From: a virus
Virus record (IMG/VR): IMGVR_UViG_3300050343_000110
Strand: one strand, 5' to 3'
Length of the DNA stretch: 64,000 nt
A program made the position numbers and the translations under genes. Of the stretch, positions 5,645-41,301 are shown in pieces. Each line of letters opens with the position of its first letter. Within the stretch, counting starts at the first letter, position 1. A model generated the notes under the pieces. That model searched no databases. It was not told the origin of the DNA and saw only the letters and a program-made list of their open reading frames with translations.

Positions 5645-5645
5645 G

Positions 5646-20700: not shown

Positions 20701-21259
20701 GATTAGAGCCGATATTCAAACTTTAGATATTGGTAAAGAAATAACTATATCTGGAAGTAGTAATAACAATAGAACATTTACTATTACTAGTGTTGCAACT
20801 GATGGTGCTAGTTTTACTGTATCACCTTCAACTACTTCGGAAAGTGCAGGCCAGTCTGTTATAATCACTCAACACGAAAACTATCTTGACGGCATCGCTC
20901 CAGAGGGAACTTCAAACGAAGCAAACTATCTTACAAAGAGGTTTACTCTTGCAAACCCAGCGACTGCACTGAAGATTTTATATGAAGCCAATCGTCCAGA
21001 ACCATCAATCTTGCAAATATATTATAAGATTGCTGAAGAGGGTGATCCTAGAAACTTTGACGATATTCCATATGTATTATCTAATACTGACGTAACTGAT
21101 AATCCAGATGAAAATAGAGAGTTGTTTAGAGAAAGAGAACATACCATTTCTGGACTAAATGCATTCTCTACTGCGGCCGTAAAGTTTGAGTTTAAATCTA
21201 CTTCGACTGTAGAAGTTCCAAAGATTAAAAACCTTAGAGTATTGGCACTTGCACTATGA
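14755..21259 (+). CDS. giant virion structural protein, VrlC/DUF4815-like (frameshift ~15122)
   Basis: PYNDDY..FHRVMFRP..VQARELTQLQ; APGAHRFK; RYTMRDIGKL; DPLGQTF; VPKIKNLRVLAL. Confidence 0.85.
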
Positions 21260-21480
21260 CGCATATTAAAGTAGAAGGACACAGTGAATATGCAAGAGAA
21301 GAAAAGTCTCATGCAATAATTAATACTGATACGTCAAATTATACTAGTTATATGAAGATGATGGAAAATAAAAAGAAACAAAAGGATCAATTGAGAGATG
21401 CAGTTAGAGAGATAAATACTTTAAAGTGTGAAATGCACGAAATCAAATCTCTATTGATGCAACTAATGGATAGGAAATAA
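21256..21480 (+). CDS. hypothetical coiled-coil protein
   Basis: Overlaps the upstream stop; EINTLKCEMHEIKSLL heptads. Confidence 0.75.
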   Translation: MTHIKVEGHSEYAREEKSHAIINTDTSNYTSYMKMMENKKKQKDQLRDAVREINTLKCEMHEIKSLLMQLMDRK

Positions 21481-22019
21481 TGGCAGACCGTAACGCACCA
21501 GCTACCTTTACATTTGAAGAGTGGAGAGTAGAATTTAATGAACTCGCAGTTGATGTCGGTGATATCAGCAATCTACCTACTTCTATTAATGGACAAGCAG
21601 TAACAGATGTTATTGAAGCAATTAAAGAATTGGAATCAGGACTCAGTTCTGTTCTCTTTCCTACGGTAATTGACTTTGATGATTCTACAGGTGCGGCTAG
21701 TGAAAGAATCAAATTTGGACTCCATGACGATTTGCAAATCTACCATGATAGTAATAACTCACAGGTTATTCATAATGGAACTGGTAATCTAAAGGTTGAT
21801 AGTAATAATAGAACTGAGGTTGATGCAACATCAGGTGTTGATATTCAGTTTAATGGAGCAACAAAACTTACATCATTAAATACTGGTGTAGGTATTAATG
21901 GTGCGCTTTCAGATTCAAGTGGAAGTGGAGCAATGACTGGCACATTGACATTTCCTACAATTGGTGGTAGAATAGCCACTGAAGGTTTTGGTATTGCTCT
22001 TGCTGTTGCATTAGGGTAA
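21480..22019 (+). CDS. virion structural/fibre protein ending in IALAVALG
   Basis: TFEEWRVEFNEL N-terminus; DDLQIYHD fibre motif. Confidence 0.7.
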   Translation: MADRNAPATFTFEEWRVEFNELAVDVGDISNLPTSINGQAVTDVIEAIKELESGLSSVLFPTVIDFDDSTGAASERIKFGLHDDLQIYHDSNNSQVIHNGTGNLKVDSNNRTEVDATSGVDIQFNGATKLTSLNTGVGINGALSDSSGSGAMTGTLTFPTIGGRIATEGFGIALAVALG

Positions 22020-22055
22020 TCATTATAAATAGATTAAACAAAGGAAGATAAAAGA

Positions 22056-22403
22056 ATGGCAAACAATTTTAAGAATGCATTTGCAACGAGTATATCCACA
22101 AACAGTGGTTCTCCTACAGATGTATATACTGCTAATGATGGTTCATCTGCCGTTAATTCAATTCTTATCGAACTTGATATTGCAAACACAGGAACTTCTG
22201 CTGTTCAAGTAACAGTTCTTGTAAGAGACAGTAGTGCTAGTGCAACATTTCATATTATTAAAAATGCACCTATCCCTGTTGGTTCAGCGCTTAAAGTTGT
22301 ATCAGGACAGAAGGTTGTGTTGAATGGTAATGACAAAATTCAAGTATATGCTTCTGCTGCAACTGTGGATGTGGTTGCATCAATTCTACAAGATGTCACA
22401 TAA
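22056..22403 (+). CDS. small beta-sandwich structural protein (MANxFKN family, copy 1)
   Basis: Paralog of 25645; late promoter at 22024. Confidence 0.75.
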   Translation: MANNFKNAFATSISTNSGSPTDVYTANDGSSAVNSILIELDIANTGTSAVQVTVLVRDSSASATFHIIKNAPIPVGSALKVVSGQKVVLNGNDKIQVYASAATVDVVASILQDVT

Positions 22404-22413
22404 GGGGTAGATA

Positions 22414-23229
22414 ATGTCTGATTCATATATTGGGTATCAATGCACCAAACAGAATATCTGCTGCATTTCAGAAAGAGGATTTCGCTGGTTCTGACTTGGG
22501 CAACATTACTGTTAGTGGTGTGACACACGCAAACGCATATGCGTTGGATACAGATGTTGATGGTTCAAATGCCGAAAACCTTTATGTGGTTGTAGATAAC
22601 GTGGTTCAAGAACCAGAGGTAGCATTTACAATTCACGAGAATGCAAGTCAACAACCAAGAATTATTAAGTTTGCTGGTTCTCTCTTGTCAACCGCTTTCT
22701 ATCTATGTAGTTCATAGAGGTATCGGTTCTATGACAATGAAGCCGCCAACAGGTTCAGTTGGTGCAGATGAACTTGCAGCGAATCTAAAGTCATTCACTA
22801 CAGATGTATTTACTGCAAACGGTTCAACTGCCGCATTCACTTTATCAGAGACACCACCAAACGCAAACTCAGTTTTGGTTTTCGTTGATGGTATCTTACA
22901 GAAGGCGTCAACCAACTATTCTATCTCAGGAACAACTCTGACATTCACATCTAATCCAGATAATAATTCAGAGATTGAAGCAAAACACATGGGTATTCGT
23001 GGAGTGGTTCGCAGAAGCACAGACTTTATCTATGATTCATTTACTGGTGATGGTTCAGACACTACATTCACTTTAAGTAATAATGGTGCAACAACAAATA
23101 GTGCGTTTGTATTTTACAATGGTATAGCACTTAAACCAACAACTGATTATGCCATTAGTGGTACTACTTCTAACAACAACATTTGCACCAGTAGAAAATT
23201 CAGAAATAATGGTGAGGTATCAAATCTAA
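22414..23229 (+). CDS. structural protein with three FxGDGS..FTL / VxVDxVxQ repeat domains (frameshifted)
   Basis: MSDSYIG start; repeats visible across ORFs 22430 and 22641. Confidence 0.65.
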
Positions 23230-24610
23230 TGCCAAGTAATTCAAAAAATATCGCAGAATCACAAATTTACGATGTAAACTCAACGGCCACTGGTGCATTT
23301 GACTTGCCATCAGGAACTACGGCACAAAGGCCTGGTTCACCAAATAGTGGACAAGCTAGATTTAATAGCACCATTGGTTCATTAGAATTTTATGATGGAA
23401 TTGGTTGGGTGCAAACAAATTTAACTCCAACAATAAATTCTATTACTGGAAACATTAATAATGGGTATGGATCTAACTTTGACTTTAAACGTATCTAATT
23501 CCACTGATACTGTTTCTCTTCAATATAAAGAAGGAAAACTCAGTAGTGGCAACAGTCGGTAATGTTGGAATAAGTGGTGGAACTGGTACTACTGTTGTTC
23601 CTGCCGCAGTTTATGGACAAACTGCTGGTGATACACTTACTCTTACTGTATTAAATGCAGATGGAACACCTAGTACAAATACAGTAACAAAAACTGTTCT
23701 TGCCGCACCAACTGGTGGAGCTATTACAACAAGTGGTAACTTTAGAATTCATACATTTACATCATCAGGAACTTTTGCCGCATCTGGGTTTTCTATTTCA
23801 AATGCAGAATATCTTGTAATCGCTGGTGGTGGTGGCGGCGGTGCTGATATTTCTGGTGGGTGGCGGAGCAGGCGGTTATCGTTCTTCAGTTGTAGGACAA
23901 GGTTCTGGCGGGGGCGGTTCTGCCGAGGCAAGAATTACTGTGGCACAAGGAAACCACACTGTGACAATTGGCGCCGGTGGCGCTGGTGGAACAGGCTTGG
24001 CACAAGAGATACCGATACAACAACAGGAACAACTGGAAGTAACTCTGTTTTTGGTTCAATAACATCAACGGGCGGTGGAGGCGGTGGCGTTTACGGTGCC
24101 GCTAACTCGACACGGAGAGATGGTAAAGCAGGCGGTTCTGGTGGCGGCAGTGGCGCTGGTGACGCTGGTGACCGTGGCATAGCAGGCGCTGGTACTAGTG
24201 GCCAAGGTTATGTGGGCGGCCGTGGTTCTGAAGGTAATCCATATGACGGTGGTGGCGGCGGTGGTGCTGGTGCAGCTGGTGGTGATAGGGCATCTGCAAC
24301 TCAAGGTGGCGCAGGCGGAGCTGGTGTATCATCAAATATAACAGGTTCAGCCGTAACTCGAGCTGGCGGTGGCGGTGGTGCTTGTTATAATAATGCCGAT
24401 TCAAGCACACCTGTTGGCGGTGTTGGTGGATCTGGCGGCGGTGGCCGAGGTGGCGCTGGAAGTGGTAGTGGTGCATTGAATGTTGGTGTTGATGGCACTG
24501 TGAACACTGGTTCTGGTGGAGGCGGTAGTTCTTGGAACGGTGCTCCAATCGCTGGTGCCGATGGTGCTTCAGGTATTGTCATTGTAAGATATGACATGAC
24601 GGCTAATTAG
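23229..24610 (+). CDS. glycine-rich fibre/adhesin protein, copy 2 (frameshifted)
   Basis: TAATG coupling; PSGTTAQRP; HTFTSSGTF, YLVIAGGGGG, GASGIVIVRY. Confidence 0.7.
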
Positions 24611-24622
24611 GAGATTATGTAA

Positions 24623-24974
24623 ATGTCACATTACGCAAAAGTAGAAAAAGGTAAAGTAATTAAGGTTATAGTTGCCGAAGAAGAGTTTTTTTGAAACATT
24701 TGTAGATGACACACCGGGCGAGTGGGTTAAAACAAGTTATAATACAAAGGCAGGTGAACATACTGAAGGGGGAACACCTTTAAGAAAAAATTATGCTGGA
24801 GTAGATTGGAACTATGATGGAGTAGGTTTCTTCCCACCACAACCCTTTAATAGTTGGACACTAAATGATACAACATATTTATGGGAGCCTCCTGTAGATT
24901 ATCCATCAGATTATGATGGGAGCAATTATACTTGGAATGAAACAAATAAAAGATGGGTTGAGACAACCGAATAA
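24623..24974 (+). CDS. small partner protein, copy 2 (frameshifted)
   Basis: MSHYAKV...LRKNYAG...PQPFNSWTLN...WEPPV. Confidence 0.7.
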
Positions 24975-25004
24975 ATAATAATGGAAAACAAAGGTAGAAA
25001 CTAA

Positions 25005-25630
25005 ATGGCATATATAGGAGCAGCAACCAACCTATGGTGTATTTGATAGACAAGTATTGGCAGGTGATGGTACAACCACATCTTTCAATCTTGATCATAT
25101 GGCCGTACCAACATCTTTGTTGGTCGTATTAGATGGTGTTGTACAAGAACCAGAACATTCATATTCAACTAATCTTGCTGCCGGACAACCAAAGATTACT
25201 TTTTCAGAAGCACCAGATAACGGTGGTAGAATCTCTATTGTATATCTTGGTAATGAGATTCTTACTGCAACTCCTGCCACTTCATCTACATTTATAGATG
25301 AGTTTAATGGTGATGGTTCTGATACCACATTTACATTGACAAGAACTCCTGCCGCAAACACTGCTGGAAACTTTGCTGTATTTGTAGATAATGTATATCA
25401 AAGATATGGTTCTTCATATGCATACACGGTTAATGGTGCAACGTATTAACATTTACTTCTGCTCCACCTTCTGGAACAAATAACATTCAATGTATTCAAT
25501 TGAATGGTGTGAACACACTAAATACTATTGCAGATGGTTCAATCAGTTTCAAAGATTGCGAAAGTTCAACAGGGACGTATTCGACCAAGCAGAAGATGAC
25601 GCAACAGCATTGGCAATTGCTTTAGGATAA
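25005..25630 (+). CDS. structural protein MAYIG...ATALAIALG (frameshifted)
   Basis: Two GDG..F repeat domains; terminal motifs read directly from DNA. Confidence 0.65.
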
Positions 25631-25644
25631 TATAGGAAAAAAAC

Positions 25645-25981
25645 ATGGCGAACACATTCAAGAATGCAGCACTGGCAAACGTAAGTCCAATAGTTCTTAT
25701 CAGACATTATATACTACCCCTGCAGCATACACAAACAGTTATTTTAGGACTTGCAATTGCAAACAAGACAACGAGTGCAGTTACAGTCCAAGTACAATTC
25801 AGAGATAGTTCTGCATCGGCCGACTTTCAGTTACTAGATGGTGTAACCATCCCAGCAAATACAACACTAGAAACACTTGCTGGACAGAAGTATATTCTTA
25901 GAGGCCGCAGACATTCTAAAAGTAAAAGCCGGAACTGGTTCGGCACTAGATGTCGTTCTTGGTTTCATGGAAAAAGCATAA
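25645..25981 (+). CDS. small structural protein (MANxFKN family, copy 2; frameshifted)
   Basis: MANTFKNAA...IANKT..AVTVQV...GQKYIL; paralog of 22056. Confidence 0.7.
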
Positions 25982-25993
25982 GGGGAGTAATCT

Positions 25994-26787
25994 ATGCCGT
26001 ATCTTGGAAGTACACCAAATGCTAGTTTCTCTTCAAGAACTAAACAAGACTTTACTGCAAACGGTAGTACAACAGCATTCACATTAAGTAGTGCAGTTGC
26101 TTCTGCAAACGATATTGAAGTATTCGTAGGTAATGTTCGCCAAGAACCTACTGATGCTTATACCGTTAACGGAACAACTCTTACAATGTCTGAAGCGCCT
26201 GCAACTGGAATTGAACTTCTATGTCGTATTCAAAGCAACTAGAAGAGAACTCAGTCGTTCCAGCAGATGGAACTATCTCTACTGCAAAGATTGCTGCTAA
26301 CGCAGTTACTACTGCAAAGATTACAAACGCAAATATCACTCAGGCAAAATTAGCATCTGGTGTCGCTGGCAACGGCCCTTCATTTTCAGCATACTTAAAC
26401 TCAAATTTCAGTATATCGAATACAACACATACAAAACTGCGATTTGACGCAGAAGAGTGGGATAGTGATGGTTGTTTCGACAGTACAACAAACTTTCGTT
26501 TTACACCAAATGTGGCAGGATATTATATGATTGGTGGTCACTTCCAACCAAACGCAAGTTACACCGTAGGAACTACCACCCTTTATAAAAATGGAAATTT
26601 ATATAGAGTTTTACATTGGAATCAACAAAGTGCAACAACACCAGCGCCTGTTGGTGGAACAACTTTGGTTCATATGAACGGAAGTAGTGATTATGTAGAA
26701 CTTTATGGGTACATGACTGTTGGCCAACAAATTCAATCAGGCAGTGAGTGGACATGGTTTCAAGGACACATGGTGAGGAGTGCTTAA
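25994..26787 (+). CDS. fibre protein with C1q/TNF-like head (frameshift ~26230)
   Basis: MPYLG start, FTANGS repeat; FSAY...FDAEEWD...RFTPNVAGYY...DYVELY. Confidence 0.7.
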
Positions 26788-26957
26788 TGACTTTGTATGA
26801 AAAAATAATAAAATTACACGATTCATTAAAAATTTCTGATTTCGATTTTGGTGGAACAATTGAACTAAGAAATGATGGTGATGGTGATTACATTGCAAAG
26901 TGGAATCATAAGACAATTAAACAACCAACACAATCAGAACTAGATGCTGTGGAGTAA
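26787..26957 (+). CDS. XkdW-like small protein
   Basis: LRNDGDGDYIAKWN...QPTQSEL motif; TAATG coupling. Confidence 0.6.
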   Translation: MTLYEKIIKLHDSLKISDFDFGGTIELRNDGDGDYIAKWNHKTIKQPTQSELDAVE

Positions 26958-26961
26958 ATAG

Positions 26962-28054
26962 ATGCCATTAAGTAAAATACAAGGAATTGAAGGACAGGTT
27001 ACACCAAATCTTGGTCGTAGGAATCTTATCATTAACGGCGCTATGCAGGTCAACCAACGAGGCACTAATTCTAATATTACCTCTGGCAGTGCCAATTTCG
27101 GCCCAGATAGATATAAATTTCAAATTAATGATTTAGGAACTTGGGAACTAAGTCAATCAACAATAGTGCCTTCTGGTCAAGGATTTTCAAATAGTCTTAA
27201 ATTAAATTGCACGACGGCTGACACTTCAGTTGCAGCGGCCTCTTATTTATTACTGCAACAAAGAATAGAAGGTGCCCACCTTCAGCATTTTAATTGGGGT
27301 ACATCTTCAGCAAAAAATTTAACATGGTCGTTTTGGATAAGGTCAACTAAGACTGGAACTGTTAGCGTAGAGTTTCAACACCAAAAATACCAGTGGTAAT
27401 TATTATACTAGAAGTAGCACTTTTACTATTAGTGCTTCAAATACATGGGAAAAGAAAACTATTACTGTACCGTCTAACACAGCACAAGACGTTAAAAATC
27501 ATCAAGGTGACGGAATTTATCTTTCATTTTGGTTTACCGCTGGAACTGACTGGACATCTGGCACATTTAATACTAGTACTTATTCAACTGGCGTATCAAA
27601 CACCACTCGTGTTTCTAGTTCTGTACCAAACCATGCAGATAGTACAAACAATGAAATTTACTTAACTGGAATACAGCTAGAGGTTGGCGATACTGCTACA
27701 GATTTTGAACACCGCTCCTATGCAGAAGAGCTTGCGCTTTGTCAAAGATATTTCTATAGGTTCACTGGACACGGTACATTATTCTACGCTGATTATTACT
27801 CTAACGATACGTTTATCACTAAAGAACCATTGCCAGTTGAAATGAGGGTTAATCCTACAGTAACTACAAGAGGAACTGGTGGAAGTGGTAATACAGCATT
27901 TTCTTATACAAATTTAGCAGCAACTCCTACTATAAGTGCATCAGGCAAAACTTCAGTTGCCGTATATAGAGGCGTAGCATCTGCGGCAAGAACATATATC
28001 CACATATATAACACCACAGCTGCTTATTCAGTAGATGCAAGTGCAGAGTTATAG
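26962..28054 (+). CDS. fibre/adhesin with carbohydrate-binding-like domain (frameshift ~27388)
   Basis: RRNLIINGAMQVNQRG...NTWEKK...GIQLEVG...EELALCQRYF. Confidence 0.75.
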
Positions 28055-28065
28055 GAGAAGATGAC

Positions 28066-28242
28066 ATGAATATTACATCAGCACAATGGTTTGACGGCCC
28101 AACCGGCAACGAGAAGGGGGTTATTAAAGCTATTATTGATGGTCAAGTAATGTGGGTGCCTCCAGAAATAGGCAACACAGAATATGATGAAATCTTAAAA
28201 CAAGTTGCCGATGGCGACTTGACTATTGCAGATGCAGACTAA
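28066..28242 (+). CDS. small partner protein (TIxDAD family, copy 1)
   Basis: NTEYDEILKQVADGDLTIADAD; paralog of 30524. Confidence 0.7.
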   Translation: MNITSAQWFDGPTGNEKGVIKAIIDGQVMWVPPEIGNTEYDEILKQVADGDLTIADAD

Positions 28243-28264
28243 ATATGAAAAAGGAAATTAGATA

Positions 28265-29144
28265 ATGCCATTCATAGGACAACAACCAATAACAGGTGCA
28301 TACTCTAAGTTAGATGCTATTACAACATCTGCTACTGCAACATATAACTTGTTGTTGAATGGTAGTGCATACTCTCCTGCTAGTGCAAATCATTTGTTGG
28401 TTTCACTTAATGGTGTTATGCAGGCTCCACAAGATAGCTTCACAGTATCAGGTTCAACAATCACATTCGCTTCTGCTCTAACAAGTTCTGATAACATCGA
28501 CTTTATCATGGCACTTGGAGATGTTCTTAATATTGGAACACCAAGTGACGGAACGGTTACTGCTGGAAAGATCGCCAGTGGTGCAGTGACAGATGCAAAA
28601 CTGGCATCTACTCTAGACCTATCTGGTAAAACAGTTACACTACCAACTGGAACAGGTGGAAAAGTTTTACAAGTTGTACAAGGATTTGTTGGCACCACGG
28701 CTACTATAGCTTCGTCAAACACTAATAATTATGCAGACTTTACTGGCCTGTCTGCTTCAATTACACCATTATCGACATCATCTAAGATACTTGTTCAGGT
28801 AGATGTTAATTTTGGTTTTGAAGTTGGTACAATTCATTTCAGAGTAGTGAGGGGTTCAACAGCAATTGGAGTTCATACTGGCACACTAGGAGGCACTAGG
28901 CTTGCCTCATCTAAATCCTTCAGAGTGGCAGCAACACCTTATGCAATTCAATCTGCGAATGCTACCCTGACGCATCTTGATTCACCTAACACTACAAGTG
29001 CAACAACATACAAGTTACAGGGTACGTTAGGTGCAACTTATAACTCCAATATGTATATGAATCGACCCCTACCATATGGGTGATACTAATGATTATAATG
29101 CAAGAAGTTCGTCAACAATTATTTTAATGGAGATTGCGGCATGA
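28265..29144 (+). CDS. fibre/adhesin protein (frameshift near end)
   Basis: MPFIGQQP start; GKVLQVVQ...DSPNTTSATTYK...STIILMEIAA head. Confidence 0.75.
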
Positions 29145-29475
29145 TACATGAGGCTATTATTAAACTTTATCCTTCTGTTAAAAGTGTTGTTGGTGAAGAC
29201 ACCCCCCTGTAGCATATGATGCAAACGGCGATGTTGTTTCTTGGGATGCAACTGCTGTTGCAGCGAAAGAGAAAGAATTGTTAGATGCTTATAAGTTGAG
29301 TTACTTGCGATATGAAAGAAACTTAAAACTTACAGAAACAGATTGGGTTGTCACTATGCACAAAGAGTTGGGAACAAACATTCCTACTGCATGGAAAACA
29401 TACAGACAGGCATTAAGAGATATAACAGATGATGCAACATCGCTTGATGATGTTACATGGCCGGAGAAACCATAA
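29141..29475 (+). CDS. tail fibre assembly chaperone-like (frameshifted)
   Basis: LRYERNLKLTETDW...WKTYRQALRDIT...WPEKP. Confidence 0.75.
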
Positions 29476-30512
29476 TGGCATTGATTAAAGTAAATAATAG
29501 AGGACAAGGGGTGCCTGTCAAGAATCTTATTGTCAACGGAAATTTTGAAGTTGACCAGAGAGGCTCTTTAGCATCGCCAGTTACGTCTGCATCATCAACA
29601 TATCCTAGAAGTGTTGATGGAAACTGGATGGGTGTAGAAGTGACTGATGGACAAATTTCTATGGGTAAAGTTGCTGATGCACCAGCTGGAACTGGACTCC
29701 AATCTTCTTTAAAAGTAACAGTTACATCAGCTGATACATCTTTAGCGGCAAACCAAAGGTGTCAGGCCTCACATTCAATAGAAGCATCTACTTGGCAACA
29801 CCTTGATTGGCATACTTCAAATGCAAAACCTATTGCAGTTCAGTTTTGGGTAAAAAGTTCTATAACTGGAACTTTTGGTTTTACATTTAGAACTTCTGGT
29901 GCTGGAATGTCTTATACTCATCCATATACAATTAGTTCTGCTAATACTTGGGAAAAGAAAACATTTACTATTGCCGGCCCAACATCTGTTTTAGGTGGTA
30001 GTGTTGGTTCTAGTACAGATATTTTTTACTATGTAATTTTTGCTTTAGGAATTGGTACTGATTTTGATACTGGTGCTAATGGTGCATGGACTGCTGTTGG
30101 TAATGGTCAAGGAAGAAGTTCTCATACAAGTCTAATTGGAACAAATGGTGCAACTTGGCAAATGACTGGTTTTCAAATTGAAGAGGGTACTATTCATTCA
30201 GAATTTAAACACGAATCATTTGCAGAAAATCTAGAAAAATGTCAGAGGTATTTTGTAAATTGTGGTAAATGGTTTGTTCAAGGGTACGGTTATGGTACTG
30301 GTTCAGATGGTTCTGGGAGTCCTTTAATGTTTCCAACGAGAATGAGAGCTGCACCAACAATAACACAAACTAATGGTTCTGATGGTGGTTCTTCCTCTTC
30401 TATGAATTTTAATTATATAACTACTACTGGTTGTTCCCCAGAATCAAGAAATACTGGTTCTGGACAAGCTGTTTGGTATCATGCAGATATTACTCTTAGT
30501 GCAGAAATTTAA
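29475..30512 (+). CDS. fibre/adhesin with carbohydrate-binding-like domain, copy 2
   Basis: KNLIVNGNFEVDQRG...ANTWEKK...CQRYF; paralog of 26962. Confidence 0.8.
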   Translation: MALIKVNNRGQGVPVKNLIVNGNFEVDQRGSLASPVTSASSTYPRSVDGNWMGVEVTDGQISMGKVADAPAGTGLQSSLKVTVTSADTSLAANQRCQASHSIEASTWQHLDWHTSNAKPIAVQFWVKSSITGTFGFTFRTSGAGMSYTHPYTISSANTWEKKTFTIAGPTSVLGGSVGSSTDIFYYVIFALGIGTDFDTGANGAWTAVGNGQGRSSHTSLIGTNGATWQMTGFQIEEGTIHSEFKHESFAENLEKCQRYFVNCGKWFVQGYGYGTGSDGSGSPLMFPTRMRAAPTITQTNGSDGGSSSSMNFNYITTTGCSPESRNTGSGQAVWYHADITLSAEI

Positions 30513-30523
30513 GGAAATTAATA

Positions 30524-30712
30524 ATGACACAATATAAAAATGCAGTTTGGAATATTAGAAAGGCTCCAGATGGAGAGGTGATGAGTAAAAATATTCAAGT
30601 AGAAATTAATGGTGTAATGTCACATATACCAAGTGACGAAAATAATTCAGATTATATAGAAATTCTAAAACAAGTGGCAGATGGCACACTAACAATCAAA
30701 GACGCAGACTAA
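30524..30712 (+). CDS. small partner protein (TIxDAD family, copy 2)
   Basis: NSDYIEILKQVADGTLTIKDAD. Confidence 0.75.
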   Translation: MTQYKNAVWNIRKAPDGEVMSKNIQVEINGVMSHIPSDENNSDYIEILKQVADGTLTIKDAD

Positions 30713-30735
30713 ATAAAAGAAACAGGAAAAGATAG

Positions 30736-33700
30736 ATGCCAATTTCACAAATTAAAACTGATGGTATAGCCAGTGATGCTGTAACCCAACCAAAGATTAA
30801 AGATAATATAACTTTGGATGGTACAGAGTTTGTTCGTGTGCCTGCAGGCACAACAGCGCAACGTCCATCTAGTGCTGCCGGTGGACAACTTAGATTTAAT
30901 ACTGACATTGGAACTTTAGAGCAGTATAACACACTTACTTCTGCTTGGCAGGCAATTGACAGTCCGCCTATTATAACTTCTGTTACTCTCGCTGGTTCAG
31001 CAACAGCCGCTAATCCTGCTGGTGGTGAGACAGTTACAATCACAGGTTCAAACTTTAAGGCAGGCGCAACGGTGACTATTGGTACTACTGCTGCTAGTTC
31101 TGTGACTATTAATTCTACTACACAAATTACAATAACTCTACCCGCTAAAACTGCTGGTGACTATGATGTTAAGGTAACAAATACAAATGGACTTGCTGCA
31201 ACAGCAACTAATGCTATTTCATACAATGGAACACCAGCGTTTACAACTGCGTCTGGTAACTTAGGAAGTCTTGCTGAGGATGTCGCAATGTCAACGATTA
31301 CTATTGTTGCGGCTGAACCAGATGGTGGAACACTTGCGTATTCAGTAACTAGCGGTGCATTACCTACTGGTGTTTCTTTAGGTTCTGCAAATGGACAACT
31401 AACTGGAACTCCCAATGTAAACCCTTCTGCTAATACAACATTCAACTTTACTGTAACTGCAACTGATGATGAGAATCAGACAAACAGTAGAGCATTTAAT
31501 CTAATTGTTCTTCGTCCTATCTATGCGACTAGTATTGCTAACAGTTTAGTATTTAACGATAATGATAGCACGAGATTGTATCGCACACATACTGCCGGTA
31601 ATCGTAAGACTTGGACTTATAGTTTCTGGATTAAACGTCTACATTTGGATTTAGGATATCAAACTCTCTTCCACACAGGTGCTGCAAATGGAAACTACTT
31701 TAATATGTCCTTTGGCACCAACAATAAGATTTTTATAAGTACATGGGCTGGCGCATTTCTGGGTACAACTAGAGAATTTCGTGATGGCCACGGTTGGATG
31801 CACATAGTCCTGGCCGTAGATACTACACAGGCAACTGCTACGGACAGATTCAAAATTTATGTAAATGGCGAATCACAAACATATAGCACAAACAGTATTA
31901 ATTCGCAGTTTGCACAAAATGCCGACACGCCCGTAAATCAGGCGCAACAACATACAATAGGTAGTAGAAATCCTTACAATACTGATGTCATTCTGGATGC
32001 CTATCTAGCAGATGTTCACTTTGTTGACGGTTCGGCACTTGCTCCGACTTCTTTTGCAGAATCCTTTAATAATGTATGGGTGCCTAAGGCATACTCTGGA
32101 AGTTATGGAACTAATGGATTCAAACTTGATTTTGCTGATTCAGCTGCGCCTGGAAATGATGTTTCTGGGGAGAACCATGATTGGTCAGCAACTGCTTTCA
32201 CTGCAAGTGACAATTCAATTGATTCGCCTACTAACAACTTTGCAACCCTTTCTCAAATTACAATGGGATCAAGTAATTCACTGAAAATAGGCGGCCTAAC
32301 TATTAATGGAGTTTATTCTGCTGACTTGTCTGGTTTTACTGGATCACAATTTCTTAATAGTGGTAAATGGTATTGGGAAGTGCGGGCAAACAGCACTGGC
32401 ACATATCCATACATAGGTATTACTACACAAGAAAAGACAATGAGAACTGCGGCAAGTGGAAGTTATTATAGTATTGCTTGGAACGCCGCCGGCACTGCTG
32501 TTTCAAGTGGCAGCGATATGGGAACAATCACAAAAACTAATGTTGAATCATATGGAAACGGTGATGTTATAATGATTGCAGTGGATGTGGATGCTAGAAA
32601 AATTTGGTGGGGCGAAAACGGTACTTGGTCGAATAGTGGCAACCCAGCAAACGGTACTGGTGAGCGTGCCTCATGGACAGTGAATGAACCTATCACTCCA
32701 TCTTTTATGGGTTATAATGGCCAAGGGGTAGGAACTAACTTTAACTTTGGTCAAGATTCTACTTTTGCTGGCAACGAAACCGTTGCAACAAATTCTGACA
32801 GTAATGGCATTGGCGAATTCCATGAAACTGTACCAGCAGGCTTCCTTGCTATTTGCTCTAAAAACCTATCAGAATCATCAATCAATACAACAACTGATGA
32901 TCGTCCAGAAGATTACTTCACAACAACTCTTTACGTTGGTGATAATTCTAATGATAGAACTATTACTACAGGATTCACGCCAGATTTTGTTTGGTTAAAA
33001 GCCAGAAACTCAACTAGTACTCACACCTTGTACGATTCAATTAGGGGAAATACACATTGGATTTCTACTGTCAGCAATCCGGCGCAGGTCACTAACTCTT
33101 CGTTGGGATGGGGAGATTCAGGCCCTACAACTAATGGATTTAAAGTTTATAAGGGAACAAATGCAGCTATCAATAATACTGGAACGAATATGGTTGCATG
33201 GACTTGGAAGGCCGGTGGCGCTCCAACTGCATCAAACTCTAATACGTCTGGTGCTATGACAGCAAACTCAGTTTCACTTAATGGAACACTTCAATCTTCA
33301 TACACACCATCTGGTTCACCTACTCAGTATCCAACAAAAATGTCTATAAACACAAAGGCAGGATTTAGTATTGTCGGTTGGACTGGCGCTGGGGCCATCA
33401 AAACTCTTCCTCATGGTTTGAGTTCTGCACCAGAAATGATGGTACTAAAAGGAACAGATGCTAGAGTTTGGTCAATATGGCATAAGGACTTGACAAGTGG
33501 TGCTTATTATGTAAACTTCTCATCAACTAATAATCAAAGTTCTGATAACGCTATGTTTAACAGTGCTGTTCCAGATGCCAATCTATTTACCATAGGAACT
33601 TACAATTATGTAAATACTGTACCTTACTTTGGTTACTTCTGGCATTCAGTTCCAGGCTACAGTAAAATAGGCAAGTATGTTGGTCAGAATGTTGCTAATG

Positions 33701-33999
33701 ATGGGCCATTTATAGAGTTGGGATTCAAGCCCGCTTGGATTATGTTAAAATCTTTGCAAGCTTCTACTCCATGGCAAATTTATGACAATAAAAGGTCTCC
33801 AGTTAATCCTGTCAATGAGGATTTGATTGCACAAGGTGATAATGCAGAACCTTATTCCACAAATTCACAGTTAGATTTTGTTGCCAACGGTTTTAAGTTG
33901 ATGGCTGGTGGTAATAATGGTTGGAACAACTATAATACTGGCACTTGGATTTACATGGCATTTGCAGAAGACCCATTTAAGTATTCCGAGGCTCGGTAA
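30736..33999 (+). CDS. large adhesin: IPT/TIG + Ig-like + LamG/ConA-like + SPRY-like domains
   Basis: GGETVTITGSNF (IPT); SGALPTGVSL (Ig); WMHIVLAVD (LamG); SGKWYWEV (SPRY); YMAFAE end. Confidence 0.8.
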   Translation: MPISQIKTDGIASDAVTQPKIKDNITLDGTEFVRVPAGTTAQRPSSAAGGQLRFNTDIGTLEQYNTLTSAWQAIDSPPIITSVTLAGSATAANPAGGETVTITGSNFKAGATVTIGTTAASSVTINSTTQITITLPAKTAGDYDVKVTNTNGLAATATNAISYNGTPAFTTASGNLGSLAEDVAMSTITIVAAEPDGGTLAYSVTSGALPTGVSLGSANGQLTGTPNVNPSANTTFNFTVTATDDENQTNSRAFNLIVLRPIYATSIANSLVFNDNDSTRLYRTHTAGNRKTWTYSFWIKRLHLDLGYQTLFHTGAANGNYFNMSFGTNNKIFISTWAGAFLGTTREFRDGHGWMHIVLAVDTTQATATDRFKIYVNGESQTYSTNSINSQFAQNADTPVNQAQQHTIGSRNPYNTDVILDAYLADVHFVDGSALAPTSFAESFNNVWVPKAYSGSYGTNGFKLDFADSAAPGNDVSGENHDWSATAFTASDNSIDSPTNNFATLSQITMGSSNSLKIGGLTINGVYSADLSGFTGSQFLNSGKWYWEVRANSTGTYPYIGITTQEKTMRTAASGSYYSIAWNAAGTAVSSGSDMGTITKTNVESYGNGDVIMIAVDVDARKIWWGENGTWSNSGNPANGTGERASWTVNEPITPSFMGYNGQGVGTNFNFGQDSTFAGNETVATNSDSNGIGEFHETVPAGFLAICSKNLSESSINTTTDDRPEDYFTTTLYVGDNSNDRTITTGFTPDFVWLKARNSTSTHTLYDSIRGNTHWISTVSNPAQVTNSSLGWGDSGPTTNGFKVYKGTNAAINNTGTNMVAWTWKAGGAPTASNSNTSGAMTANSVSLNGTLQSSYTPSGSPTQYPTKMSINTKAGFSIVGWTGAGAIKTLPHGLSSAPEMMVLKGTDARVWSIWHKDLTSGAYYVNFSSTNNQSSDNAMFNSAVPDANLFTIGTYNYVNTVPYFGYFWHSVPGYSKIGKYVGQNVANDGPFIELGFKPAWIMLKSLQASTPWQIYDNKRSPVNPVNEDLIAQGDNAEPYSTNSQLDFVANGFKLMAGGNNGWNNYNTGTWIYMAFAEDPFKYSEAR

Positions 34000-34057
34000 A
34001 ATTATATAAACATCTAATACACAATCCTTATAAATAGAACAAAGGAGACTGTGTTCG

Positions 34058-34393
34058 ATGGCAACTATTTCTAATTTATTTATTGACCAAGACGCTGACT
34101 TCACCACAACGGTGACAGTCAACGATTCTACTGGTACTCCACTTGACTTGACAAATTTTACTGCACTTGCAATGTTACGAAAATCGTATCAATCATCAAC
34201 TGCAACTACATTTACTTCTGCATTCGTTTCTCCACGAACCACAGGACAAATCACAATTTCACTAACAGACACGCAAACCTCTGCTCTTGAATCTGGACGT
34301 TACGTTTATGACTTAGTTATAACCGATGCATCTGGTAATAAGACAAGGGTGGTAGAAGGTATTGCAACTGTAAACCCAAGCGTATCAAGGTAG
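34058..34393 (+). CDS. conserved virion structural protein
   Basis: NLFIDQDADF...GRYVYDL...RVVEGIATVNP; late promoter at 34029. Confidence 0.75.
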   Translation: MATISNLFIDQDADFTTTVTVNDSTGTPLDLTNFTALAMLRKSYQSSTATTFTSAFVSPRTTGQITISLTDTQTSALESGRYVYDLVITDASGNKTRVVEGIATVNPSVSR

Positions 34394-34397
34394 AACT

Positions 34398-34685
34398 ATG
34401 GCAATCACAGCAACAGTAAATACAACAAGAAGTGTAGTGGGTTCGGTATCGCAAGGTAATCAACCTCAAGTAACTCGTGTAACAGTGCCAGGCCCCAAAG
34501 GGGATACTGGACTTGCTGGTTCTGCACAGAATCAGATATCAGCAGCATCTGATGTAGACATTACATCATTTCCTCTGCAAGATGGTTCTCTATTACAATA
34601 CAGACAATCGACTGGTAAGTGGACTGCAAGAAATGAACTCGATACAACTTCTGGAAACCTCGTGCTGAGTGGTGGAAGTTTTTAA
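34398..34685 (+). CDS. small structural protein
   Basis: VPGPKGD, SDVD..DGSLLQY..GKW, ends GGSF. Confidence 0.7.
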   Translation: MAITATVNTTRSVVGSVSQGNQPQVTRVTVPGPKGDTGLAGSAQNQISAASDVDITSFPLQDGSLLQYRQSTGKWTARNELDTTSGNLVLSGGSF

Positions 34686-34704
34686 CTAATAGGAAGAAAG
34701 TAAA

Positions 34705-36297
34705 ATGGCACTAACATTACAAATTAAAAGGTCTACTGGTAGTACCGCTCCATCGGCTCTTGCTGATGGTGAACTCGCCTATACCCACGGTAACGATGTA
34801 TTATATATTGGTGATGGGTCTACAGTAGAAGTTATCGGAGGTAAATCCTTTAACGATAAAATTGATCACACTGCTGGTACACTAACTGCTAGTTCTGCTG
34901 TCCTTGTTGATAGTAACAAGGCAGTTGATGAGATGTTTGTTGGTAATCATGCAACAACAGGTGGACAGATTAAACTCAATGAAGGTACTAACAACGGCAC
35001 ACACTTTGTTGGACTGAAAGCACCTAACGCACTTGGGGGTAACGTAACATTTACACTACCGACTGCTGATGGAAGTGCAAACGAATTTCTTAAAACAAAC
35101 GGTTCTGGTGCATTGTCATTTGGTGCAATATCAAGTTCATTTACACTTGCAGCCGATAGTGGTTCTAACGATACATTTAATACCAGTGAGACACTTACAT
35201 TTACTGGTGGAACAGGTATTGACACAACAGTATCAAACAATGAAATTTCATATGCAATTGATTCAACTGTCGCAACCCTAGCAGGTTCACAGACATTAAC
35301 AAACAAGACACTAACTGCTCCAGTAGTTGAAGGTGGTACGATTGGTAATTCAACAGCAGTAACAATCGCAAAAATTGATAATATTACTATTGATGCAAAC
35401 ACAATTTCAACAACTAACTCAAATGGTAACTTGGTTATCTCACCAAACGGAACAGGTTCAATCACAGTTCCTTCAGGTTATGAGGGAAGAGCTGGATTTG
35501 GTGATGACTCACTTGTAAACAAATCATATGTTGACGCAGTTGCAAACGGACTTGATGTTAAAGCATCTGTAAAAGTTGCAACCACAGCAAACCTTTCTGG
35601 TACATATAATAATGGTAACGGAACAATTACTGCTGGTTCAAACGGTGCAATCTCAGTTGACGGTGTAACTCTCTCAGTAAATGATAGAGTTCTTGTTAAA
35701 GACCAGACAACACAAACACAAAACGGTTTCTATAAAGTTACTACAACTGGTTCTGGTTCTGCTGCATTTGTTCTTACAAGAACACCAGATGCAGATGCAG
35801 CCTCTGAACTAACAGGTGGTGCATTTACATTTGTTGAAGAGGGTACTGCAAACGCAGACAACGGTTTTGTTCTGACTACAAACGGAACACCAACACTTGG
35901 AACAACTAACATTACCTTTGAACAATTCTCTGGAGCCGGACAAATTTCTGCTGGCGCTGGTTTGACTAAAACTGGTAACACAATTGATGTTGTAGGAACA
36001 GCAGACAAGATTACTGTATCTGCAAACGCTCTTACAATCGCATCAACTTATGTTGGCCAGTCATCTATTACTACTTTAGGCACTATCTCAACTGGTGTTT
36101 GGAATGGCACTGCAATTGCAGCGACTTCTGGTGGTACTGGACTTTCCAGTATAGCAAAAGGTTCTGTACTTGTGGCGAACTCTGCCAATACTTTGTCTGC
36201 ACTTGATGGTGGCGGTTCTAATGATGGAGTGTTGTTTTATACATCATCTTCTGATACACTTTCTTTTGCAACGAGTATTGACGGCGGCACATTCTAA
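34705..36297 (+). CDS. tail fibre-like protein
   Basis: LQIKRSTGSTAPSALADGELAY N-terminus; DRVLVKDQT...NG domain; ends IDGGTF. Confidence 0.8.
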   Translation: MALTLQIKRSTGSTAPSALADGELAYTHGNDVLYIGDGSTVEVIGGKSFNDKIDHTAGTLTASSAVLVDSNKAVDEMFVGNHATTGGQIKLNEGTNNGTHFVGLKAPNALGGNVTFTLPTADGSANEFLKTNGSGALSFGAISSSFTLAADSGSNDTFNTSETLTFTGGTGIDTTVSNNEISYAIDSTVATLAGSQTLTNKTLTAPVVEGGTIGNSTAVTIAKIDNITIDANTISTTNSNGNLVISPNGTGSITVPSGYEGRAGFGDDSLVNKSYVDAVANGLDVKASVKVATTANLSGTYNNGNGTITAGSNGAISVDGVTLSVNDRVLVKDQTTQTQNGFYKVTTTGSGSAAFVLTRTPDADAASELTGGAFTFVEEGTANADNGFVLTTNGTPTLGTTNITFEQFSGAGQISAGAGLTKTGNTIDVVGTADKITVSANALTIASTYVGQSSITTLGTISTGVWNGTAIAATSGGTGLSSIAKGSVLVANSANTLSALDGGGSNDGVLFYTSSSDTLSFATSIDGGTF

Positions 36298-36321
36298 TAA
36301 GTAGTCATGTAGGAGTGCCTC

Positions 36322-37965
36322 ATGGCTGTGGATTTAAAACTTAAAAGGTCGCATACCCACTCTACAATACCATCTACTTCGGATTTGGTAGAGGGTGAGT
36401 TTGCAGTCAATACATATGACGGTAAAATGTATATGCGTGATGGCAGTAACAATGTTGTTACTGTTGGAAACCATTATGCAACTGATTATGAATCTTCCAC
36501 AAAAACTTTCTATATAACTGTTGCATCCTCAACTTCTGCTCACGTTCATAACGGTAGTGGTTCTAGTAGTAAGTATAAAGTTAATGGTGTCTTTTCACCC
36601 TATCTAAAACTTATCCCTGGCATCACATACAAGTTTGATCAAGCAGATAGTAGTAATGCTAACCACCCATTTAGATTCTATTTGGATGAAGGCAAAGGCA
36701 CTGCATATACAACAGGCGTAACAACTAATGGAACTGCTGGTTCTGCTGGTGCATACACACAGATTGTTGTAACACACTCAACCCCTGCTGTTCTTCATTA
36801 TCAATGTTCTGCACACTCTCTTATGGGATGGGCAGCGTTTGTGCATACGGATAACCTAACTGCATTTGATACTGGTGACTTGACAGAAGGTTCTAATCTT
36901 TACTTCACTAACGCACGAGCAGACGCACGAGTAAATGCAGTATTACCAAACACTGATAGTCTTACAGAAGGCTCTAGTAACCTTTATTACACTGATGCAA
37001 GAGCGCAAGCAGTTTCTATCAACAATGTCGTAGAAGATACTTCGCCTCAACTTGGAGGCGCTCTTGACTTAAACTCACAAAATATTACTGGTACTGGTAA
37101 CATTTCTACCACTGGTGATTTAACACTTACATCCACTGATACTGGTTCAAGTGCAGAACCCTATAATTAGTTTGGTTCGTGATAGTTCAAGTCCTGCTGA
37201 TGCAGACTATCTTGGTCAAATTAAATTTTTAGGTGACGATGACGGTGGTAGTCAACACGTTTATGCAAAGATAACTGGTAAAATTGCTGATGCATCTGCT
37301 GGCACAGAAGATGGTATTATTGAAATTGCAAATGTTAAGGCTGGTACAAATACTATTACTGCAAGATTTACGTCATCTCTTCTAAAGTTGTTGAACGGTA
37401 CAGGGTTGACGGTTGATGGTAATACGACACTATCTGGTACACTAAACGGACATACAATTCCTGGCGGTTCTGGTACACTTGCATTGACAAGTGATATTGG
37501 GGTTCTACAGACTTATCTGCCGATTCAACTCCTCAACTTGGAGGCGACTTGGATGTAGTCACACACGGAATTGTTTCCACCTCAAATAGAAACATTGCAA
37601 TTACACCAAACGGTTCTGGTAAAGTTATCATTGATGGACTATCACATCCTGTCGCAGACGGTAACGCAGGCCAAGTTTTAAAGACAGATGGTTCTGGTAA
37701 TCTTGCATTTGCTTCAGTTGGTTCACTTGCTGGTTCTGGTATTCAAAATGTATCAGATGATAGTTCTCCTCAACTTGGAGGCAACTTAGATGTTGTGACA
37801 CATAGTATTATATCAACATCCAATAGAGATATCAACCTTACACCGAATGGTTCTGGTAAAGTTGTTGTGAGTTCAACTGGTATTGAGTTTAGTGATGGTT
37901 CAGTTCAGACTGCCGCTGGTGCCGATCAAGGATTTGCAATCGCCATGGGCATTGCACTTGGGTAG
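36322..37965 (+). CDS. tail fibre-like protein with cupredoxin-like segment, ends FAIAMGIALG (frameshifted)
   Basis: LKLKRS..GEFAVN; HPFRF..YQCSAHSLMG; LTEGS(S)NLY x2; PQLGGxLD x3. Confidence 0.7.
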
Positions 37966-37992
37966 TATAAATACTATAAAAGGATAAATTAA

Positions 37993-38809
37993 ATGGCAAT
38001 ACCTACAACAAGAACAGATTTTAAAGAGTGGTGTCTCAGGAGTCTAGGTAAGCCTGTAATCGAAATTAATGTCGATCCCAGATCAGGTAGAAGATAGAAT
38101 AGACGAAGCTTTACAATACTTTGCACAATATCACTATGATGGTGTAGAAAGAGTATACCTAAAATACCAAATTACACAGGCAGACATCACTCGTTCTAGA
38201 AGTGATAATAGTCTTGCACAGGTTACGGATGTTGATTCGTCAACAACAGCAGTCTGGAAAGAACAGAAGAACTATATTCCTGTTCCAAGTTCTGTTATGT
38301 CTATTGTCAAGGTATTCCCTATGACAGACAAAGCATCACTGAATATGTTTGATGTTAGATATCAGTTGAGACTAAATGACTTATATGATTTTAGTTCAAC
38401 TTCTTTGATACATTACGAAATGACAATGCAACACTTAGATTTCTTGGATCATATTCTTATCGGTGAGACTGCAATACGTCACAACCAACATCAAAACAGA
38501 TTGTATCTGGATGCTGATTTTCAAACAGACTTTGTTGATGGAGATTACATCATCATTGAATGTTATCGTGCAATTGATCCTGCTACATATTCTGATGTTT
38601 ACAACGATATCTTTTTGAAGAAGTACACGACACAACTTATCAAGAAACAATGGGGTGCAAACCTTTCCAAGTTCCAAGGTATTCAGATGTTGGGTGGAGT
38701 TGCTCTTAATGGTGAACAGATTTACACGCAGGCTCAAGAAGAGATTGATAAATTGGAAGAACAGATTCAACTTGCATACGAACTGCCTCCAATGCATATG
38801 ATAGGGTAA
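37993..38809 (+). CDS. gp13: neck protein gp13 (frameshift ~38078)
   Basis: LG.PVIEINVD..QVEDRIDEALQYF..YHYDG; KKQWGANLSKF. Confidence 0.9.
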
Positions 38810-41291: not shown

Positions 41292-41301
41292 GGGATAGAG
41301 A

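Follow-up and report, generated by a model that had tools for sequence, protein, structure and literature searches.

The 64,000-nucleotide (nt) viral sequence IMGVR_UViG_3300050343_000110 from IMG/VR (the whole stretch is referred to below as the window) contains, at positions 21256-37965, the host-recognition (tail-fibre) cluster of a T4-type marine myophage that resembles Melnitz. Twice in this cluster the same three genes follow one another: one for a protein that ends in a short hydrophobic peptide, ..ALG (the tail), one for a small jelly-roll protein that begins with MANNFKN or MANTFKN (MANxFKN), and one for a protein that begins with a Y/F-I/L-G peptide and continues with one to three XD-like beta-jelly-roll domains (YIG protein). 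The order of this triad is strongly conserved, and under selection at the protein level, in 80 viral contigs. The association suggests, with roughly even confidence, a non-covalent three-part fibre joint in which the tail, the MANxFKN jelly roll and the YIG-XD protein would be in physical contact. What appears to be new is the ALG tail at the C terminus, the separate jelly-roll family, and the fixed linkage of both to YIG-XD proteins in many phage lineages. Branched receptor-binding complexes that combine gp10-like domains with docking peptides are already established for T4, CBA120, G7C and Klebsiella phages. No description of the triad is found in the Melnitz paper or in the pelagimyophage paper (PMC7029224), and none of the papers listed in a search of the literature contains the strings MANTFKN, MANNFKN or ALAIALG.

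The triads and their conservation

All genes of the region are on the + strand. The first triad starts with a 179-amino-acid (aa) protein of the MADRNAPA family (21480..22019), which consists, in the family alignment, of a conserved N-domain of ~50 aa, variable beta repeats and a tail of the F type defined below. Its open reading frame (ORF) terminates, on direct translation, in ..EGFGIALAVALG, with the tail GFGIALAVALG at 21987-22016. It is followed by the MANNFKN protein (22056..22403; 115 aa, N clade), a jelly roll by its AlphaFold model and fold matches, which has 727 close relatives and is the candidate joint adaptor, and by a YIG protein that starts with MSDSYIG, contains three XD-like domains and is a homologue of Melnitz gp170 (22414..23226). 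The second triad starts with a protein (25005..25630) that combines a MAYIG start and two XD-like domains with the D-type tail DDATALAIALG (25595-25627). Next come a MANTFKN protein of the T clade, 74-78% identical to Melnitz gp174 (25645..25981), and a YIG protein with an MPYLG start and one XD-like domain, the orthologue of Melnitz gp175 (25994..26787). A third tail, GFAIAMGIALG (37930-37962, F type), closes a fibre gene that is read in frames 1, 2 and 1 (36322..37965); the ORF ending at 37965, with the terminus ..QGFAIAMGIALG, is the C-terminal part of this longer gene.

These elements had been pointed out in a preliminary description of the region, and direct translation bears out their coordinates: the three ..ALG ends at 22019, 25630 (..DDATALAIALG) and 37965; the paralogous MANNFKN (22056) and MANTFKN (25645) starts after two of them; the YIG-type starts MSDSYIG (22414), MAYIG (25005), MPYLG (25994) and MPFIG (28265); and a further set of starts, here called the MPLSKI type, at 11604 (MAIDRI), 26962 (MPLSKI), 29475 (MALIKV), 30736 (MPISQI), 40944 (MAIRKI) and 43131 (MPLTRI). 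There are no further [IV]ALG ends in any + frame of the window. The FxGDGS..FTL domain had been described as present in one to three copies per YIG protein, and a repeat-domain hidden Markov model indeed finds seven, which are confined to the four YIG proteins (3+2+1+1). The product of 25005, which had been proposed to act as an extender, represents a conserved protein type with a YIG start, two XD domains and an ALG end. In Melnitz it is intact as gp173 (211 aa), and its body family is found directly upstream of 19 MANxFKN genes in the collected loci.

Several of these genes are frame-broken in the window. Compared with Melnitz and with a viral contig 94% identical to the window (L002), there are 1-nt insertions at 22430, 22696, 23170, 23858, 24686 (in a T homopolymer) and 25025, plus others. 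The broken genes include those at 22414 (near 22430, 22696 and 23170), 25005 (three frames), 25645 (near 25900), 25994 (near 26225) and 26962, and several of them are intact in other genomes. Judging from these comparisons, the indels are probably sequencing or assembly errors; alternatively, the frame-broken fibre genes of the window may be a decaying copy. In Melnitz both triads are intact, comprising gp168 (..GFSIAIGVALG), gp169 (MANNFKN) and gp170 (MSSYLG) in the first and gp173 (MAYIG....ATALAIALG), gp174 (MANTFKN) and gp175 (MPYLG) in the second, and gp188, which ends in ..ITFAIALG, directly precedes gp13.

The triad was followed in 80 IMG/VR viral contigs that encode a relative of MANxFKN (39-98% identity). 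The loci were retrieved in part with the pattern MAN[NT]FKN and selected by regular expression, which inflates the apparent invariance of the heptapeptide; retrieval made no use of the tail or the YIG start. The upstream ORF ends in [AIVLM]A[LI][GAS] for 82 of the 83 MANxFKN genes that have one, and the downstream ORF starts with M.{0,4}[YFH][ILMV]G for 58 of 67. The other ORFs of the same loci show such a tail in 15 cases and such a start in 28 cases (of 579), most of which are genuine extra members. The pattern is far beyond what chance would give. The downstream YIG genes encode 71 to 933 aa, with bodies that mostly fall into one cluster by BLAST.

Triads are also found in named phages, where the heptapeptide varies (MANTFKA, MANTFRA, MAQDFERN, MATVFKS). 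The Pelagibacter podophage HTVC010P encodes gp23 (..ALAIALG), gp24 and an unannotated (L)AYIG ORF; the SAR116 podophage HMO-2011, the fibre gp43 (..AMAIAL), gp42 and gp41 (MPYIG); the cyanophage S-TIM5, gp131, gp130 and the 1415-aa fibre gp129 (MPHIG); and the Rhizobium phage RHph_TM30, the 76-aa gp308 (..AIAMAIALG), gp309 and the fibre gp310 (MSYIG). A more divergent version is found in the Delftia phage phiW-14 (gp63, gp62 and gp61). The unannotated HTVC010P ORF, (L)AYIGNKPANK.., is found in the interval that follows gp24 (L083, ~5367-5690) and probably represents a YIG-type gene, starting at TTG, that annotation missed.

The tail consists of alternating small and large hydrophobic residues, with the consensus ..[F/D]x[I/L]Axx[I/V]ALG-COOH. 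Among 22 upstream representatives that are at most 75% identical, conservation is limited to the last ~10 residues: entropy does not exceed 1.1 bits at positions -1 to -5 and -7 and is above 2.4 bits beyond -12. The tail is carried by bodies of 64 to 1280 aa, which BLAST separates into six or more groups. The tail is thus a terminal peptide conserved on unrelated proteins, the feature used in Latka-type definitions of docking elements, and the shortest of its carriers, of 64 to 90 aa, consist of little beyond the N-domain and the tail. In one contig (L049, 4590-4986) two such mini-proteins of 64 and 65 aa (MADR..), ending in ..FSIAIAAALG and ..FNIAMAVALG, both of the F type, are encoded in tandem upstream of a single MANxFKN gene.

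Two classes of tails are distinguished, and both are found in the window. F-type tails (GF.IA..[VI]ALG) go with the MANNFKN clade and D-type tails (DD..ALAIALG) with the MANTFKN clade. In a tree of 72 MANxFKN proteins, F-type upstream tails are found in 41 of the 42 rows of one clade and D-type tails in the other, so that tail class tracks MANxFKN clade across unrelated upstream bodies.

Could the conserved ends be nucleotide signals (late promoter, ribosome binding, recombination linkers), or mark programmed read-through that fuses neighbouring genes? A late-promoter-like box, TATAAATA, is indeed found on the + strand at 22024..22031, between the stop codon of the first tail gene and the MANNFKN start. 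This box, which we take to be the T4-type late-promoter consensus and to function as in other T4-type late promoters, suggests that the adaptor gene may have its own late promoter. However, many synonymous DNA sequences encode the same peptides (19 for ALAIALG, 14 for ALAVALG and 22 for MANTFKN), which indicates selection on protein rather than on a DNA signal and essentially excludes the first version. Read-through could account for two database proteins that look fused, but the distance from the tail stop to the MANxFKN start varies between 3 and 71 nt, usually with several in-frame stops in the gap, and both fusions dissolve on inspection. The first (P0272, from L086), with ..ALAIALG-Q-N-MAQTFKN at the junction, is an artefact in which a TAG stop was called as Q; the second (P0124) has the same Q right after ..ALG and points to the same TAG=Q gene call. 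Taken together, an origin of the conserved ends in DNA signals or read-through is extremely improbable.

Folds of the jelly-roll and YIG proteins

The MANxFKN family is large. A profile search against 1.84 billion cluster representatives yields 3681 family clusters at 50% identity, 1242 of them at E values of 1e-10 or lower, and nearly all members among the matches listed are stand-alone proteins of 100-125 aa. Pfam gives no match above threshold, and the only PHROG matches are to families 26609 and 1276, both of which are of unknown function. The AlphaFold model of the MANNFKN protein, built from a 27-row alignment, is a compact eight-stranded jelly roll that spans the whole protein (predicted local distance difference test [pLDDT] 91.5, predicted template modelling score [pTM] 0.84). 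Its best structural match is the plant nucleoplasmin-type HDT1 (7vrr_A; VIA Z 9.8, root mean square deviation [rmsd] 2.3, 94 residues aligned), followed by the trimeric cement protein of KHP40 (7dou_4; Z 9.5), the HFTV1 turret (8qpg_TD; Z 9.4) and an Ena spore-appendage subunit (8pdz_R; Z 8.8), these small oligomeric jelly rolls covering Z from 9.8 to 8.4; TNF/C1q-like heads come next. The top matches are tied, so that no single family can be named. The MANxFKN jelly roll is probably an oligomeric knob. The names "virion structural protein" and "virion protein" are attached to relatives in S-TIM5, MaMV-DC, S-SCSM1, HTVC010P and rhizobiophages.

The family also includes a few unusual members. 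Tandem duplications of the jelly roll (P0139 and P0155, 225-231 aa) hint at neighbouring subunits in an oligomer, and some members have an insertion of ~85 residues (L053-L061 and P0122; 197-203 aa). Apart from the two apparent fusions, the long matches in the fusion search are a chimera (P0121), such insertion and tandem variants, and a distant member in an unrelated context (P0229, from L087), whose C-terminal extension was considered as a lectin-like domain and found to have no Pfam support. Donor-strand complementation was likewise considered, from weak matches to FimG (E 0.33), and discarded: the modelled jelly roll is already complete by itself.

YIG proteins consist of a free N-terminal peptide, M..Y/F-I/L-G..P, followed by one to three beta-jelly-roll domains. 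Sequence comparisons relate these domains to a known fibre anchor, close to threshold: Melnitz gp170 matches the Phage_T7_tail family (Pfam ID PF03906) with 26.6 bits, against a cut-off of 25.2 (E 5.6e-6), HMO-2011 gp41 scores just under the cut-off (23.7 bits), and the frame-broken copy in the window matches only DUF4183, just under threshold (24.2 versus 25.1 bits). The structural comparison was made with a model of the intact orthologue in the contig L039 rather than of the broken gene in the window. The XD domain matches XD2 of the CBA120 tailspike TSP4 (7rfv, residues 187-250; Z 9.7, rmsd 1.5 Å, 64 residues, 25% identity), and two consecutive domains (model residues 394-537) align with TSP4 residues 187-333 (7rej_A). 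Model residues 393-459 match the N-domain of T7 gp17 (7ey9_b, residues 5-78; Z 9.3, rmsd 2.0 Å, 67 aligned); further matches are 8dsp_C (Z 9.3) and 7ey7_a (Z 7.8), and the fibre anchors of LME-1 and HRP29 are matched as well. In T4, XD2 and XD3 of gp10 bind gp12 and gp11, and in TSP4 they assemble the four-spike complex (PMC8825819). The XD2-XD3/T7 gp17-N fold of the repeat domains indicates that YIG proteins are, as modelled, gp10-like hub or anchor proteins.

Dozens of weak matches of Melnitz gp170 (L001, 9622-10440) to antibody kappa light chains were dismissed as chance, FTGDGSDTTFTL resembling the framework sequence FSGSGSGTDFTL. This likeness could mislead automated annotation.

The heads that follow the N-terminal modules appear to be mobile. 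RHph_TM30 gp310 (MSYIG..) and the products of 26962 and 29475 in the window match the distal third (~751-1096) of the 1096-position family phrog_4492, which would place YIG- and MPLSKI-type proteins at the distal end. The same phrog_4492 head is found behind YIG starts and behind MPLSKI and MALIKV starts, suggesting that heads are exchanged between plug types.

The properties of MANxFKN bear on an alternative in which this protein is the cap, tip or assembly factor of the upstream fibre only, binding its hydrophobic C-terminal tail or helping it to fold, and the YIG protein is the independently anchored next fibre, whose T7 gp17-like N-domain would attach directly to the tail or baseplate of the particle. 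Proteins of this kind include gp38 of T2 and S16, which acts on gp37, and Tfa of Mu and P2. Pfam and PHROG searches and the fold matches listed gave no match of MANxFKN to the Tfa, gp38, gp57A or S74 chaperone families, an absence that is still compatible with membership. TNF/C1q-like jelly rolls, present among those matches, are common as fibre heads, but MANxFKN is the best-conserved gene of the cluster, 78% identical to its Melnitz counterpart compared with 32% for the gene before it, which argues against a receptor-binding tip. Transient chaperone caps are found in Alteromonas phages, and factors acting on a fibre C terminus are usually encoded just 3' of the fibre gene (PMC10579305). On the other hand, tail-bearing proteins as short as 64-90 aa leave little to fold, the cluster already holds homologues of the Melnitz "tail assembly chaperone" genes (28066 and 29209), and the relatives of MANxFKN are named as virion proteins. 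The N-domain of T7-like gp17 docks directly on adaptor and nozzle (PMC10575957), and in the window YIG proteins outnumber MANxFKN genes four to two, those at 25005 and 28265 having no MANxFKN gene before them. Still, a function confined to the upstream fibre does not explain why the YIG start downstream is kept in 58 of 67 cases, in myophages and podophages alike. On balance, a cap, tip or assembly factor is plausible but less likely than the joint.

The proposed fibre joint and its precedents

The conserved motifs, the folds, and the correlation of tail class with MANxFKN clade are shown; from them we infer the contacts, oligomeric state, polarity and presence in the virion of a joint made of three parts. 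The proximal protein, anchored by its N terminus, would present three hydrophobic C-terminal tails. An oligomer of the jelly roll would cap and hold these tails of the trimer at one face, and at its opposite face it would bind the distal protein, either by the YIG peptides at the N terminus or by the first XD trimer. The remaining XD trimers of the distal protein might then carry additional fibres. On this view the genes would be arranged in the sequence in which their products assemble, as for T4 gp34-gp35-gp36.

A structural model of a complete triad was obtained for L039, where the three genes share a frame, by reading the stops as glycine; the resulting 537-residue chain was modelled with a 25-row, partly paired alignment. 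AlphaFold predicts the jelly roll and three XD-like domains with confidence (pTM 0.32 for the whole chain). In this monomer context the tail (residues 125-136) and the YIG N terminus (269-284) are disordered (coil with pLDDT below 50), a common state of docking peptides, which is compatible with peptides that become ordered on binding.

Several observations weigh against the joint. Neither peptide docks on the jelly roll in the L039 fusion model, a monomer with linkers of 13 and 5 residues; such a monomer is a poor stand-in for a trimer, and the model is to be read as no support rather than as refutation. With tail and MANxFKN genes separated by 3-71 nt, the correlation between their classes could be due to genetic linkage rather than recognition. 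Four YIG proteins, three tails and two MANxFKN genes make no simple chain in the window, and the third tail, at 37965, has no MANxFKN gene 3' of it, the neck gene gp13 being next. Nine of the 67 downstream genes have no YIG start, some of them starting with MPISKI or MPIQKG, and in one contig (L033) a gene of the MPxSKI type directly follows MANxFKN, contrary to a strict hierarchy. The search of the 3681 clusters of the MANxFKN family turned up no true fusion with a neighbouring gene. Finally, the virion names of MANxFKN relatives are database annotations, which makes presence in the virion putative; for S-SCSM1, 45 virion proteins are reported from mass spectrometry.

Some of the same observations would also fit a co-inherited cassette in which the terminal motifs are intrinsic structural elements and the tail, jelly roll and YIG protein make no contacts. 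The closing strand or helix of a trimeric shaft would then be formed by the tail, the YIG peptide would belong to an anchor for the baseplate or an XD trimer, and MANxFKN would be a separate decoration of baseplate or fibre; some of its fold matches are capsid cement or turret proteins. AlphaFold docked neither peptide, and tight linkage alone could yield the class correlation. Yet the tail is kept on unrelated bodies when the residues preceding it are not, which is unexpected for an element intrinsic to a fold. The giant VrlC-like protein, which no MANxFKN gene follows, does have a loosely similar end (..LRVLALAL). The genes around the cassette vary freely, and its three joining elements nevertheless travel as a set, even among podophages and rhizobiophages whose fibre genes otherwise differ. 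A cassette with no contacts between its members is plausible but less likely than the joint.

The preliminary description went further than the joint and proposed a hierarchical docking code, with tail binding MANxFKN, MANxFKN binding YIG proteins and the repeat domains of the latter binding MPLSKI-type adhesins. The conserved triad and the XD-type folds, known from docking modules, are in keeping with such a code; its strict hierarchy is at odds with the MPISKI-type starts found downstream of MANxFKN, and the last step would hold by analogy only. The same description set the arrangement apart from the T4 fibre. In essence that contrast is mistaken: gp10-like domains make up the hub, and the logic of the joint resembles gp34-gp35-gp36. 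No protein of 21256-37965 has a match to a Pfam or PHROG family described as gp34 to gp38, in searches that did not use the T4 proteins themselves as queries.

In the long tail fibre of T4, the C terminus of the proximal part (gp34), a small connector (gp35) and the N terminus of the distal part (gp36) are joined, and the genes are in that order. The triad has the same succession of proximal end, separate connector and distal start. Unlike the 110-aa jelly roll described here, gp35 is a monomer of 372 aa, and the likeness is one of logic. In phiW-14 the gene upstream of the MANxFKN relative was labelled gp34/gp36-like by its depositors and has no match in a PHROG search.

T4 gp10, the N-terminal part of CBA120 TSP4 and G7C gp66 have tandem XD2/XD3 beta-jelly-roll domains of the same fold as the YIG repeats, and their XD trimers bind the N termini of partner fibre trimers (PMC8825819). 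The three-domain YIG gene of the window also lies downstream of gp8-like and VrlC-like genes, roughly at the position of gene 10 in T4. There are clear differences. Membership of YIG proteins in the gp10 family was not found at the sequence level; they lack XD1 and the triple-beta-helix anchor of gp10 and TSP4 and have a short YIG peptide before the first domain instead; and the gp10, TSP4 and gp66 systems lack the separate jelly-roll and tail-bearing proteins that here precede the hub gene. The N-domain of T7 gp17 (PF03906), considered here together with the SP6/K1-5 adaptor idea, attaches fibres to the particle and has the same fold with a weak sequence match. In T7 this domain starts at about residue 5, whereas in YIG proteins a conserved extension of 17-30 residues comes first and up to three copies follow; moreover, the window phage is a myovirus.

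The dual receptor-binding protein system of KP32-type Klebsiella phages (PMC6872550) is similar in that receptor-binding proteins with unrelated bodies share short terminal peptides, a gp10-like domain is the socket, and heads are exchanged as modules. Its plug is N-terminal only and docks straight on the branching domain (PMC6872550). The triad would add a C-terminal plug and a stand-alone adaptor, and there are many more fibre genes.

A mechanistic precedent, as distinct from evidence of relatedness, is provided by analogy with the F-ENA fibres, F-Anchor and ExsF of Bacillus. There, the trimeric jelly roll ExsF holds the N-terminal leader peptides of trimeric collagen-like fibres in clefts, and DUF4183 trimers stack with their N-terminal hooks entering hydrophobic clefts (PMC12357932). 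ExsF is bacterial, not viral; it is among the weak Foldseek matches of MANxFKN (E ~4e-3) and is not among the best VIA matches.

More speculatively, and with the balance tilting against it, the triad could be a universal snap joint with an orthogonal code of at least two specificity classes, which bolts interchangeable distal hubs onto a conserved stalk in very different phages, the carriers in view being pelagimyophages, cyanomyophages, pelagi- and roseo-podophages and rhizobiophages. If so, it would explain how abundant ocean phages shuffle many receptor-binding heads across virus families, and MANxFKN would represent a new class of fibre-adaptor proteins. The three-part joint itself, if real, would explain the exchange of modules between myoviruses and podoviruses and add a type of adaptor to gp10-type branching. 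It would also give a testable rule for the assembly of the hypervariable fibre clusters of pelagiphages, OM43 phages and cyanophages, which rank with the most abundant viruses of the sea. As the MANxFKN family is found in phages of cultivable hosts (Rhizobium and Delftia), the idea is open to bench work.

Other genes of the cluster

The closest named relatives of the window phage are the four genomes of the Methylophilales (OM43) myophage Melnitz, with ~81% nucleotide identity over parts of 21000-38000 and the same gene order in the region. The cluster is bounded by a VrlC-like giant baseplate gene upstream and by the neck gene gp13 downstream, with gp13, gp14 and gp15 from ~37993 onward. In pelagimyophages and cyanomyophages the counterpart interval is a hypervariable "host recognition cluster," a variable island with tail fibres, which in pelagimyophages starts 3' of the VrlC-like gene (PMC7029224).

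Upstream of the cluster, a baseplate wedge gene similar to T4 gp8 (13215..14714, +; Pfam Phage-Gp8, E 3.1e-10; 57% identical to Melnitz gp165) precedes the giant VrlC-like structural gene (14755..21259, +; DUF4815, E 2.3e-33), which is frame-broken near 15122 and matches Melnitz gp166 in two frames. The loosely tail-like end of its product is encoded at 21230-21259, and similar VrlC-like ends, ..LRAIALAT and ..LRVIALA, are found among Melnitz gp166 (L001) and the gene at 1342-4494 of L042, again with no MANxFKN gene after them. The first gene of the region (21256..21480, +) encodes a 74-aa protein that matches phrog_473, annotated as "virion structural protein" (E 3.6e-23).

Between the two triads there are two genes on the + strand. 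A frame-broken gene at 23230..24610 (start approximate) encodes a glycine-rich fibre or head similar to Melnitz gp171 (phrog_2295, E 1.3e-41); in gp171 itself Gly_rich_2 scores below threshold (22.0 bits, gathering score 24.3). It is followed by a small protein of the MAHYAKV type (24660..24974), similar to Melnitz gp172 and gp176, with a paralogue near 12815. The "tail assembly chaperone" labels of Melnitz sit on gp178 and gp180, not on gp172 or gp176.

After the second triad, all on the + strand, fibre genes alternate with small genes. Melnitz gp175 runs on into a glycine-rich head (Gly_rich_2, E 1.5e-17), and the window matches its residues 1-100 only. The MPLSKI-type fibre gene, similar to Melnitz gp177 and frame-broken, is located at 26962..27865; its translated part (26962-27399) matches positions 784-903 of the 1096 in phrog_4492. 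A 58-aa protein (28066..28242) is 56% identical to Melnitz gp178, labelled "tail assembly chaperone" by the depositors. The fourth YIG protein, with an MPFIG start (28265..29083), is intact and consists of one XD-like domain plus a head; it matches the tail fibre family phrog_18673 (E 7.7e-35) and residues 597-685 of the P-SCSP1u fibre gp28 (E 6.3e-9). A protein ending in ..WPEKP (29209..29472) matches Melnitz gp180, likewise labelled "tail assembly chaperone," and is followed by the MALIKV-type fibre (29475..30512), whose head corresponds to the distal third of phrog_4492 (positions 785-1096, E 2.7e-38). The MPISQI-type fibre or adhesin (30736..33999; 1087 aa) contains TIG, He_PIG, SPRY and DUF7483 domains. 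Three more fibre-cluster genes (34058..36297; 111, 95 and 530 aa) are similar to Melnitz gp184-186, and the 530-aa protein begins with a sub-threshold Mtd_N-like motif. The fibre gene with the third tail then completes the cluster.

A second junction pattern is seen outside the triads. The products of 40944 and 43131 in the window, like gp41 and gp33 of HMO-2011, end in ..TLTV.SG.L.[IV]V. The proteins that follow them start with MAS/MS.L.V[DN].I and are found at 41302 in the window, where the pattern was noted in 40944-41808, and as gp40 and gp32 in HMO-2011 (L082).

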